Source: Candidatus Latescibacterota bacterium
Lineage (GTDB): Bacteria > Latescibacterota > UBA2968 > UBA8231
Assembly (NCBI GenBank): GCA_965197905.1
Contig: CBDAOB010000004.1
Location: 1,984,001 to 2,048,000, forward strand
DNA: 64,000 nucleotides
Direction of reading: 5' to 3'
Shown: positions 35,419-46,360 of the stretch, one piece after another
How positions within the stretch are numbered: the stretch's first letter is position 1
Layout of the letters: every line of letters begins with the position of its first letter
Program-made: the position numbers and the translations under genes
Notes under the pieces: model-generated
Database searches by the model: none
Told to the model about the DNA's origin: nothing
The model's input: only the letters and a program-made list of their open reading frames with translations

Positions 35419-35502
35419 GCGAGAGTGGCGGAATTGGTAGACGCGCCAGATTTAGGATCTGGTGCCCGTAAGGGCGTGGGGGTTCGAGTCCCCCCTTTCG
35501 CA
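35419..35502 (+). tRNA. tRNA-Leu (anticodon TAG); CCA not encoded
   Basis: Acceptor GCGAGAG/CTTTCGC, D arm TGGCGGAATTGGTAGACGC, anticodon arm CCAGA-TTTAGGA-TCTGG, long variable arm, GGTTCGAGTCC. Confidence 0.97.
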
Positions 35503-43309: not shown

Positions 43310-44725
43310 TCAGTTCGACTCCCCGGCTTCCACGGGGTGGTCGCTGTCTTCGATTACCCGCATGGACTTCCACGCCCCCGATCTAAATCTCAAGTAGAAT
43401 ACGATGCCCGCCGCGACGATGTAGGCGCACATGAGTGTCCACAACGTCCAGACTCCCACGTCGAAGAGTGCGACCCCAACAACAGCGGGAATGAGCATCA
43501 CTAACCAGCTCAAGCCGATTGAGCCCAACATCACGTAGCGCGTATCACCGGCCCCTTTCAAGGCAGATGTAAACACGATATACATGCCGTCGAAAACGCA
43601 GTACACTGCGACGATTCGCAACAGTCCCTCGGCCAGGTTTTGAGCGGCCACAAAATCCTCCCCGTGTGCGCGAAAGCCGTACGGCATCAAGAACAGCGCG
43701 GGCACGCACAAGTACAAAAGAGCCATCGTGCCCATATAACCCAGGGCAAGGTGCATGCCAGACCACGTGCAATATTCGGCCTTGTCGGGAAAATTCTCAC
43801 CCAGATGCTGTCCGACCAGGGTAGACACGGCGATGCCGCATCCAATCAACGGCATGAATGCCAGGCTGTTGACGTTGAATGCCATGTTGGTCGCCGCCAG
43901 TTCGACCGTGCCCAGTCGTCCCACTATGAGAATGAAGAAGGAGAACGCCATGACATCGAGCATGAAGTTTACACCGCTTGGGACACCGAACCTCAGCATC
44001 CGGCGAAAGAGTTCCCCATCGAATCTCCACTGGCTCAGAGTGCCGAACTCCTCACGGTTTTGGCGTTGTAGGATTAGCAGTCCTAACAACAGCGCCGAGA
44101 ACGCAGCGGCCAGGTTGGTGGCCCAGGCCGCCCCACGGATCCCCATCGCGGGGAATCCCCAATGGCCGAAGATGAGGGCATAGTCGAGTCCGATATTTAT
44201 GCCGGTAGCGGAGGCGTTTACAATCAAAACAACCCACGTCTTACTCTGGCCGCTGTAAAAGCAGGACAGCACAGTTGCCAGGACAATGGGGCCTGTTCCG
44301 AAACAAAGGATACGAAAGTAGGCGACCTCCTCGGCGCGAATCGCGGGATCGTGGCCGATGAGGTCAAATAGCGGCCGGGCAAGTGGGAGCAAACCGAGAG
44401 CGGCGATTCCTGCTCCCCAGGAGAGATGCGTGCCCTGCCAGATGGAGGCACCGACGCGGTCGCGCCGTCGAGCTCCTACATACTGTGCGACAAAAACGTT
44501 TACGTATCCGGCAAGCCCCAAGAAGAAACTCACAAACACAAAGTTGCTTATCCCTGCCGGGAGTGCGGCGGCCATCGATTGAGTGGAATGCCAAGTCAGG
44601 AACACCCGATCGACGAAATGCTGAATGCTCCAGCTGGCGGTACTGAGAATCAGCGGCAAAGCGAGGGCGAGGAAATCTCGGTATCCTCCGACACTGCCCC
44701 ACCGGTCGCGCACGCTTGCAAGCAC
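43310..44725 (-). CDS. MATE-family efflux transporter (start codon uncertain)
   Basis: LALPLILS, FVDRVFL, VAQYVGA, MGIRGAAWAT, ALKGAGDT. Confidence 0.92.
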   Translation of the reverse strand: MLASVRDRWGSVGGYRDFLALALPLILSTASWSIQHFVDRVFLTWHSTQSMAAALPAGISNFVFVSFFLGLAGYVNVFVAQYVGARRRDRVGASIWQGTHLSWGAGIAALGLLPLARPLFDLIGHDPAIRAEEVAYFRILCFGTGPIVLATVLSCFYSGQSKTWVVLIVNASATGINIGLDYALIFGHWGFPAMGIRGAAWATNLAAAFSALLLGLLILQRQNREEFGTLSQWRFDGELFRRMLRFGVPSGVNFMLDVMAFSFFILIVGRLGTVELAATNMAFNVNSLAFMPLIGCGIAVSTLVGQHLGENFPDKAEYCTWSGMHLALGYMGTMALLYLCVPALFLMPYGFRAHGEDFVAAQNLAEGLLRIVAVYCVFDGMYIVFTSALKGAGDTRYVMLGSIGLSWLVMLIPAVVGVALFDVGVWTLWTLMCAYIVAAGIVFYLRFRSGAWKSMRVIEDSDHPVEAGESN

Positions 44726-44901
44726 TTTGATTACGGCTCCAGGCTCGTTGTGAGTGGATTGAAAACGGTAGAAACATTTCGATGGCCGCGAGCTTTGAGA
44801 CGGTCCAGACACCGCAGACGAGGGCCACGTCGGCACCGTCTGCGCGGACGTGTTTGGCGATGCGATCGCTGCTGTCGATTGTGAGTGACAAACGGTTTAC
44901 G

Positions 44902-45650
44902 GTGCGCCGTGCTAAGGCGCACATCTTCAGTGGGTGCGAATCCCACCCGGCAAGGGTCGCTCCAGCCGGTAGCAATCGGAGCAGTGGTGGAGGCGACGAA
45001 GCCGCTGAAGCCTCCGGTGTAGAGGGTCGCCTTGGGCGACTTGGCGAGCACACAGGCCGTAACGTGAGTAAACGCTGAGCAGGCCTCGAAAAGTGTAATG
45101 CGGAAGCCGACCTGCCCGTAAACCAGGGAAGGCCGCTGCAGCTGGGGAAGTCGAGCGACAAGCGCACCCAGCTGTTCCGCCGGGGTAGTGGCGACAGCAT
45201 GTGTGTAAGAGGAGATGTGGCGCAACACGGGAAGCCTCATCCGGTGGAAGCAGCGAGTGCCTCCAACCGGTAACCCGCGAGGGCCAGACTGGGCTGGATG
45301 AGGTGGCGGACAGGCGCGTAGTACCGAGGAAGCCGGGTAACTCCGGTGGAGGGAAGGGGCCTGACTTCGGACATGCTGCGGAAGTGCAGAGGGTTGGAGA
45401 GTGGCGTGAGCCTATTGCCTCCAGCAGTAAGACTAGTATGCATCGGAAGCAGCTTGACTACCAGGTGAAGTCCTTGTGGCGTGTGCCTGGATGTGACGTT
45501 CGTCGGGAAGCCGGATGCGGGAGATCCGCACGTCCGGTTTGAGGCGGCGGGAACTGGAAACGTAGCGATGGGAGTCGGACTGAGGGCTATGGCGAAAGCC
45601 ATGGGGAACCCACCGAACCCTAAGGCTGGCGCGCCAGTTCTCGACCCTAC
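44902..45650 (+). mobile_element. Group II intron with no intact ORF (749 nt)
   Basis: 5' GTGCG; domain V GAAGCCGGATGCGGGAGATCCGCACGTCCGGTTT (45507-45540); domain VI ending CTCGACCCTAC; EBS1 CGTAAACC (45117-45124) complementary to flank GGTTTACG (44894-44901). Confidence 0.92.
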
Positions 45651-45724
45651 CCCATTGATCAGAGCATCGGATGGATTAATATTAGCGACAGGCGGCTCCG
45701 AATAACTCTCTATTAGAAGAAAGC

Positions 45725-46360
45725 ATGTCAAAGAAAACCAAAACCGTTAAGAAAACGCAAAGAAAAGCGTTCGGTATTACCGTTCTCAAAGCAGCGGACA
45801 AAAGAATCCGAAGTCTAAAAAGCGAATACGAACCGTTCGTTCACGGCGGCAAGTTTTGGAACTCCAGCTGGCTGATCATGGACTTCCTGAAACGTCAAGG
45901 TGTTCCGCAGAACAGCCGGGTAATCGAGGTCGGATGTGGGTGGGGTCTGGCTTCCATATACTGCGCCAAGAATCACGAGGCAAGAGTGACCGGCGTCGAT
46001 ATGGATTCGGCCGTATTTCCCTATCTCAAGCTGCACGCGGAAGTCAACGATGTACGGGTCAAAACCGAGCGTATGAAGTTTCAGGATCTCAGAAAGAAGA
46101 CGCTGTCCAAATTCGACCTCATGATCGGTGCGGACGTATGCTTCTGGGACGAGTTGGTGGACCCCCTGTACAAATTGATTCGACGAGGCGTCAAAGCCGA
46201 CGTTCAACAGATCATTGTCGCCGACCCGGGACGCCCACCGTTTCTAAAGGTCTGCGACCGCTGTTGTGACAAGCTTGGCGGGATAACGAAGGACTGGGAA
46301 ATCTCAGGATCGGTTCGAGCCAGCGGCACCCTCCTGATCGTGGGGTCTCTACCGCACTGA
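45725..46360 (+). CDS. Class I SAM-dependent methyltransferase (lysine-methyltransferase/Methyltransf_16-like)
   Basis: GGKFWNSS, VIEVGCGWGL, IGADVCF, VADPGR. Confidence 0.85.
   Translation: MSKKTKTVKKTQRKAFGITVLKAADKRIRSLKSEYEPFVHGGKFWNSSWLIMDFLKRQGVPQNSRVIEVGCGWGLASIYCAKNHEARVTGVDMDSAVFPYLKLHAEVNDVRVKTERMKFQDLRKKTLSKFDLMIGADVCFWDELVDPLYKLIRRGVKADVQQIIVADPGRPPFLKVCDRCCDKLGGITKDWEISGSVRASGTLLIVGSLPH

Follow-up and report, generated by a model that had tools for sequence, protein, structure and literature searches.

In bacteria, group II introns that lack an ORF have been described as rare, and as lying nearly always beside a related intron-encoded protein (IEP) (PMC4424553; this and the papers below are cited for the parts that were available). 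In Thermosynechococcus elongatus, driver IEPs move the ORF-less TeI3 introns, a IIB1/CL family derived by one ORF deletion from a resident intron (PMC2882425). IIC-attC introns such as S.ma.I2 lack an endonuclease and insert site-specifically into attC; they belong to class C, enter the R'' box (TTGT/T) of the bottom strand, lie opposite to the cassettes, and use the attC hairpin together with a short EBS1 (PMC3001079, PMC7923331). Non-IIC introns in cassette arrays are UHB.I2, H.ha.F1 and H.ha.F2 (IIB), which are of the CL1 and E classes, are single or truncated, and are located after attC or inside cassettes, UHB.I2 in the cassette orientation; no guide match to an attC box is reported for them in the available part of PMC7923331, which cites one IIC intron in the attC top strand and, in that part, does not report guide-based entry into L''. 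The class F (IIF) g3 introns Ni.ha.I1 and D.a.I1 have no En domain, carry the alpha-prime element in a terminal loop, and have a 5-nt domain V loop; neither attC targeting nor an ORF-less mosaic form is described for them in the available parts of PMC3552965 and PMC3753933. Introns of class IIF self-splice in vitro, and EBS2 is dispensable for their splicing (PMC3753933).

The window analysed here, a stretch of 64,000 nt from a Candidatus Latescibacterota genome, holds a real, recently mobile, non-autonomous class F intron. Its attC-like target and its mosaic build appear to be new for introns of known kinds; neither a class F attC intron nor a transferable ORF-less domain IV came up in a search of the open-access literature. 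Like TeI3, the intron has no ORF, occurs in multiple recent copies, and has a related IEP in the same genome, encoded by the one full-length, reverse transcriptase (RT)-bearing relative, here called the driver. Unlike TeI3, it is of class F, its main target is attC-like, and its domain IV appears to be of other ancestry rather than the product of an ORF deletion from a resident intron. It shares with the IIC-attC introns the missing endonuclease and the site-specific attC insertion, but it occupies the top strand, in the L'' region and in the cassette orientation, instead of the bottom-strand R'' box; it is guided by EBS1 (7 nt), EBS2 (which covaries with the target) and EBS3, and the IEP is not of class C in the tree described below. 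The missing En domain, the alpha-prime terminal loop and the 5-nt domain V loop are those of Ni.ha.I1 and D.a.I1, whereas EBS2, 4 nt long and set 3-4 nt from the 7-nt IBS1, differs from that class. The features of the locus, in window coordinates, are:

43310..44725, minus strand: MATE transporter gene (MatE, Pfam 5e-42), start probably near 44725
44888..44891, plus strand: IBS2, exon positions -14 to -11, three of four pairs with EBS2, preceded by TG (TA at most sites)
44895..44901, plus strand: IBS1, a full match to EBS1
44902..45650, plus strand: class F (IIF) ORF-less group II intron, 749 nt, from Rfam and comparison of copies
44956..44962, plus strand: alpha element in the loop of domain IB, from complementarity seen in the sequence
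45093..45096, plus strand: EBS2 (4 nt), located in the bulge that separates ID(iii) from ID(iv), from covariation, unpaired in the constrained fold
45117..45123, plus strand: EBS1 in the d3 loop, from covariation, with the letters of the L' arm of several attC-like sites of the host
45153..45159, plus strand: alpha-prime, placed in a terminal loop at the end of a stem (a trait of IIE/IIF introns), from folding and PMC3753933
45188, plus strand: EBS3 (G), pairing with the first base of the 3' exon, from covariation (43 of 50)
45235..45303, plus strand: domain II, from folding
45357..45503, plus strand: short ORF-less domain IV, related to ORF-less introns of the genome family f4, unlike the driver
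about 45394-45424, plus strand: DIVa-like hairpin retained in domain IV
45507..45540, plus strand: domain V, AGC triad at 45509-11 and 5-nt loop, from the Rfam match and folding
45543..45648, plus strand: extended domain VI, bulged A at 45644, from folding
45651, plus strand: IBS3 (C)
45655..45682, plus strand: weak promoter-like element with 8 of 12 consensus matches (TTGATC at 45655-60, 16 nt, TAATAT at 45677-82)
45725..46360, plus strand: SAM-dependent methyltransferase gene, 74 nt after the intron

An earlier note, made from the letters of this stretch, had described an ORF-less group II intron with GTGCG...AC boundaries, a canonical domain V and an extended domain VI, and all of these are present. 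The element begins with GTGCG and ends with GACCCTAC (AC terminus), in accordance with the GUGYG start and AY end of group II introns, and contains the catalytic triad and the AC bulge position of domain V and the bulged A of domain VI; the note's interval, which began at 44894, counted eight exon bases, and the true start is 44902. In the covariance-model search proposed there, both Rfam models exceed their gathering scores, group-II-D1D4-4 over domain I (44928-45067; 106.8 bits, gathering 49) and Intron_gpII over domains V-VI (45506-45655; 40.4 bits, gathering 40). The helices of domains I-VI can all be drawn. The minimum-free-energy fold of the whole intron, with a z of -1.33, is uninformative and misfolds the 5' end. 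Constraining domain I costs 5.2 kcal/mol and gives a fold in which EBS2, and EBS1 for the most part, are free of pairs; EBS1 lies in the d3 loop, a placement on which the earlier interpretation depended. Alpha-prime ends a stem-loop in DId3 and the domain V loop has 5 nt, two class F traits that are shared with IIE. The claim that the 749 nt lack an RT ORF also stands: the ORFs overlapping 44902-45650 are short or antisense, and the genome's 13 RT matches lie elsewhere. The assembly has not collapsed out an RT ORF: no difference appears in domain IV in the 582-nt short-read contig or the RNA contigs that span it.

The same note had paired an 8-nt loop sequence with the 8 nt preceding the intron. 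The complementarity is exact (CGTAAACC at 45117-45124 against 44894-44901), and the chance of such an 8-mer complement anywhere in the intron is about 0.007; the functional EBS1, however, is most likely 7 nt rather than 8, since the last C of CGTAAACC closes the d3 stem, and since position -7 is G in 11 of 13 insertion sites, whereas -8 is G in only 4. Among 36 distinct hairpins, the four pairs of this stem form in 35, 36, 29 and 28, and some of the changes are compensatory. For the guide alignment, 80 related loci were reduced to 57 with a usable 5' boundary, which together with the window intron and the driver make 59 introns with 37 guide types. Pairing with the targets lies above all 2000 shuffles for each guide: 284 pairs for IBS1 against a shuffle mean of 116, 182 against 110 for IBS2 (with 27 full 4/4 matches against 2.3), and 43 of 50 against 17 for IBS3; the outcome is the same for the 59 rows or the 37 guide types, and the rows are related, so that these ranks are not a probability. 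Covariation places EBS2 opposite exon positions -14 to -11, plus or minus one, and trimmed a 6-nt candidate for EBS2 to 4 nt, whereas a canonical IBS2 adjoining IBS1 was rejected, there being no consensus at -12 to -8. The dinucleotide TA directly 5' of IBS2 is common across the family, without covariation; EBS2a as described in the available part of PMC8643678 was considered as its reader and rejected because it lies on the other side and does not fit the geometry. We note that in three relatives in one genome (L128, L140 and L147 in G056) domain I is interrupted after position 66 by a repeat-rich insertion.

The host genome (G000) contains 12 full copies of the intron, 99.7-100% identical, and one copy cut at 700 nt, 13 in total. 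The window intron is identical to 8 of the other full copies and differs by at most two changes from 3 further ones. The cut copy (C3:359767-360466) shares a 445 bp upstream cassette (98.7%) with the copy at C2:7475 and is taken as a duplication, which leaves at most 12 independent insertions; the 13 copies represent about 8 independent regions. The search for copies and for an RT-bearing relative, which had been suggested as a check, thus yielded both, the relative being:

C3:1187174-1189158: RT-bearing relative (the driver), 1985 nt, encoding an intact 441-aa RT/maturase

The driver protein has a YADD motif and the Pfam domains RVT_1 and GIIM, and no other domain, and the driver intron equals the window intron at 229 of the first 230 nt, EBS1 and EBS2 included. 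In a quick RT tree, which leaves out at least 44 of the 80 genome loci as short or redundant, has g4, basal F, D and E unrepresented among its references of known class, and represents L102 by another RT of its locus, the driver groups with an A. caldus g3 ORF and with Ni.ha.I1 (SH-aLRT 99; 46.6% identity to Ni.ha.I1), which is listed as g3/class F in Table S2 of PMC3552965; the missing En domain and this g3-side placement are those of a class F IEP. The RT of the IMP-4 integron intron is separate in the tree (33% identity). Of the genome's other 12 RT matches, which belong to two other lineages, 11 are copies of a g1-like intron and the last is an RT that was left unplaced. Judged from the shared guides, the one full-length relative is the likely source of RT acting in trans, in line with the earlier description of a non-autonomous element; the genome is 91% complete, and a further driver may be missing.

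An ORF-less copy lies directly 5' of the driver with no exon between them (C3:1186425-1189158). In the driver, one pair of the d3 stem is lost through a change private to it, at position 226. The eleven g1-like RT-bearing copies (for example C3:277000-279082; the copy viewed is followed by transposase-like sequence) lack a strand bias comparable to the one seen in the ORF-less family. At C5:668275-668349, a domain V-VI match stands alone, with no RT nearby, and the transposase end beside it we take to be IS91-like.

Domains II, III, V and VI of the window intron are 85-97% identical to the driver. Domain IV, in contrast, is 51% identical to the driver in this comparison and 57-60% to the driver and its clade in the per-domain one, and resembles the ORF-less introns of two genomes, G052 and G111 (79-80% in the 5' part, 83-87% at the 3' end). 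Per-domain trees of 21 introns, from which three introns were dropped where borders were not found, place domain I, domains II-III and domains V-VI with the driver clade (support 0.998, 0.948 and 0.996), whereas domain IV groups with eight ORF-less introns (0.996). Among 168 genomes of the phylum, matches to domain IV occur in 11 of the 22 genomes of family f4 but in 1 of the 75 of the host's own family, where the match is short and weak; the f4 matches for which both ends were examined proved to be ORF-less introns, 730-942 nt long and at varied targets, and a pattern scan of metagenome contigs for the ORF-less domain IV returned none. The intron thus appears, as far as these comparisons reach, to be a mosaic of two lineages, in which domain IV does not share the ancestry of the other domains. 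The simplest reading would be an exchange where domains III and V have their conserved borders, and tandem pairs like that at C3:1186425 would be natural substrates for it. In other intron classes, domain IV is the protein-binding part (PMC2882425, as available); recognition of the dissimilar domain IV by the driver is assumed. A family of ORF-less class F introns (L172-L199), present in multiple copies and at varied targets, has a domain IV of 170-173 nt in common; its members are found in genomes G101, G105, G106, G109, G111, G052 and G056. No GIIM-domain match was found in G109 and G115.

After in silico removal of the introns, attC-like arrays are apparent on C2 (1-36 kb) and C3 (289-363 kb). 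The sites have R'' (AAC) and R' (GTT) boxes and complementary L arms, are repeated between cassette genes, and are accompanied by integrase genes:

C3:203951-205219: full integron integrase, above the NCBIfam cut-off, far from the arrays
C2:37246-37995, minus strand: truncated integrase-like frame (250 aa) next to the C2 array, oriented like the cassettes

The textbook pattern of extrahelical bases is not present in these sites. They were called with our own heuristic, which gives many false hits outside the arrays, and with our own profile built from this genome's sites, which gives 57 hits after intron removal, mostly in the two regularly spaced arrays, but did not pick up the long occupied site C2:34699, the empty half site C3:295147 or two other half sites. 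These replaced a strict attC pattern, with which only 3 sites were found, and a hairpin test by closing of the R boxes, which found 3 of 13, one of them in the wrong register.

Eight of the 13 copies are located in attC-like sites or their remnants: five split complete sites, two lie in left arms without a right arm, and one is the duplicate. Of the remaining five, one is the window copy and four lie within open frames 345-549 codons long. The insertion point in attC-like sites is constant: on the cassette (top) strand, the intron enters 16-17 nt past the beginning of TAAC. In this register the R'' box is overlapped by TA and IBS2, the L'' region serves as IBS1, and the letters of EBS1 resemble those of the L' arm. 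All four occupied profile hits have an IBS1 match of at least 5/6 followed by C, as does 1 of the 45 other scored hits (8 of the 57, without an R'' box, are unscored); one empty attC-like site, C3:308226, has a perfect IBS1 but T at +1, and two matching sites, C3:293304 and C3:295147, are empty. With score thresholds set after the occupied sites were seen, the full target rule yields 37 sites genome-wide, 9 of them occupied (7 of 9 of attC type and 2 of 28 others, p ~1e-4), and a looser rule with T only yields 248 sites, 12 of them occupied. After masking, all 13 copies are found on the G-rich strand whichever of three scales is used, compared to 9 of 26 empty motif sites outside attC. Close to the C2 array the GC skew is weak, with values of 0.003-0.005 at 60 kb. 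The lagging-strand template is normally the G-rich strand, and this placement is as expected for endonuclease-less retrohoming at the fork. A strong strand bias is described for class F introns in the available part of PMC8919778.

The closest relatives of the intron come from Candidatus Latescibacterota genomes. Three of the four close RT-bearing relatives (83% amino-acid identity; L043, L059 and one in G020), in two other genomes, occupy the same attC-like position, and in L043 an altered EBS1 matches an altered IBS1; the fourth, L044, has a left-arm-like site only. In G002 and G020, an intron copy lies 2-4 kb from an integrase-like gene. A convincing attC context was not found at any of 41 more distant genome relatives, for which the host-specific and hence biased profile gave no hit and no generic match was convincing, or at any of the 28 metagenome relatives (of 80) with both flanks; on these data, the attC habit is confined to a small clade. 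A truncated relative (L310, G119:C70), 86% identical in domain I, has the same EBS2 and a left-arm-like target and is missing its 3' part. The host genome also holds a second, different ORF-less intron of 827 nt (C3:348603-349429, minus strand), in another attC-like subfamily, inserted 14 nt after the start of TAAC at a site that its own EBS1 matches; its last 109 nt are 83-92% like domain VI of the attC clade, whereas domain I is about 61% identical, a contrast which suggests that its domain VI may have been exchanged too.

The window copy, which the earlier note had placed in its cognate target site, has a perfect IBS1, and to that extent the description holds; with IBS2 at 3/4, TG for TA and no attC hairpin, however, the site is a weaker side target of an intron whose preferred target is the attC-like left arm. 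No R''/L''/L'/R' structure was found around the insertion by hairpin test, profile or generic match. An empty allele with an exact 749-nt skip, joining 44901 to 45651, occurs in the public runs X1 and X5, and the locus is intron-less in a variant strain of run X2 and in the congeneric genomes G001 and G002, related genomes having been suggested as a place to look; the insertion therefore looks recent and unfixed. In X1, where the empty joint has a depth of 6.7, a 50-nt contig with only 20 of its letters in the intron spans the filled 5' junction at depth 5; this suggests that filled and empty alleles coexist in that sample. The divergent flanking genes proposed earlier are confirmed as MATE transporter and methyltransferase; the MATE start is put near 44725 because the longer 5' frame is closed in G002. 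The promoter-like TTGATC...TAATAT sequence is likewise present, although it fell below the cut-off of a promoter and terminator scan that returned no sites. The intron ends 4 nt 5' of the TTGATC hexamer, which is kept in G001 and G002; if this element is the methyltransferase promoter, the window copy lies outside that transcript. A tRNA with a TAG anticodon lies at 35419-35502 of the window.

Intron RNA contigs without differences occur in all four RNA runs at depths of 42-87, with no flank cover; the runs, given as contigs only, come from one study and are labelled sponge metagenome, and any copy may be the source. The host is probably sponge-associated. No splicing product, lariat or circle junction was found in the RNA contigs of the four runs. 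One RNA contig (X6) that starts exactly at 44902 was considered as a sign of excision and set aside, as the start was not repeated in X7-X9.

With good confidence, we interpret the 13-copy ORF-less class F intron as one that likely splices and retrohomes with the RT of its one full-length relative, and the window copy as a likely recent side insertion of an element whose guides match attC-like left arms. Intron RNA would be made from copies in transcribed cassettes or genes and bound by the driver protein; the ribonucleoprotein would then reverse-splice into the single-stranded lagging-strand template at TA-IBS2-spacer-IBS1-C and be copied to DNA. Every copy would match EBS1 because this pairing is how insertion happens, and attC left arms would be hit most because they carry the target motif many times on the right strand. 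The window copy, at a site that fits this motif less well and 5' of the putative methyltransferase promoter, is probably a dead end with poor transcription.

The excess of occupied attC-type sites under the full rule would also follow if the intron recognised the attC hairpin itself, as IIC-attC introns do, besides base pairing, and the window copy were a true error. We regard this as unlikely. When strand is counted, the contrast falls to 7/9 versus 2/11 on the preferred strand (p ~0.02), so that sequence and strand explain most of the excess and hairpin recognition is not needed; moreover, most empty full-rule sites carry the lowest passing scores, five copies including that of the window have no attC structure, IBS1 would be paired and less reachable in a folded attC top strand, and purifying selection against insertions in genes could yield the same excess. 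Spread by DNA-level duplication or cassette shuffling, in place of retrohoming, does hold for one copy, the truncated one at C3:360466 with the 445 bp cassette it has in common with C2:7475. As an account of the family we give it almost no credence: the other 12 sites have unrelated flanks, which refute it for 12 of the 13 copies, together with exact boundaries, guide matches and no target duplication, and the empty allele of the window differs by exactly 749 nt.

The mosaic build, in turn, could be explained away by a simple ORF deletion from the driver or a close sister, after which domain IV drifted. The almost identical first 230 nt, the origin of the TeI3 family by such a deletion (PMC2882425, as available), and a hairpin in domain IV that resembles the RBS-start-codon-like hairpin of the driver all point this way, yet domain IV is closer to the G052/G111 ORF-less introns than to the driver clade and groups with eight ORF-less introns (support 0.996), and the region of the deletion junction is common to introns of that type; the deletion is already disfavoured, and we consider it improbable. 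Finally, the position between divergent genes, 4 nt from a conserved TTGATC hexamer, invites the view that the insertion was selected because it regulates the methyltransferase gene or the MATE gene, for instance as a splicing switch. The sequence is the same as in the other copies, however, the empty allele coexists in X1 (6.7 versus about 5) and is the state in G001 and G002, and the putative promoter lies 3' of the intron, all of which make such a role very improbable.

In itself, the window copy is minor, a side insertion showing that the target rule works without attC. The invasion of attC has so far been described for class C introns, through the bottom-strand hairpin; top-strand entry of a class F intron by base pairing is a second route. 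The occupied and empty sites of one genome form a test set for target rules, including the role of EBS2 in homing. We propose, tentatively and with somewhat less than even confidence, that domain IV is an old, portable ORF-less module, which would recombine at the borders of domains III and V into RT-bearing class F introns and yield shorter, more numerous non-autonomous copies that keep the targeting of the host intron. Here it would have captured a ribozyme with guides that mimic the attC L' arm and become the parasite of an intron, which colonises arrays on the cassette strand, blocks attC in the DNA, and removes itself from the transcript. The mosaic domain IV suggests domain exchange, besides deletion, as a way in which non-autonomous introns can arise. 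A class F intron in the top strand could be spliced out of the cassette transcript and yet divide the recombination site at the DNA level, and may in this way lock cassettes in place.
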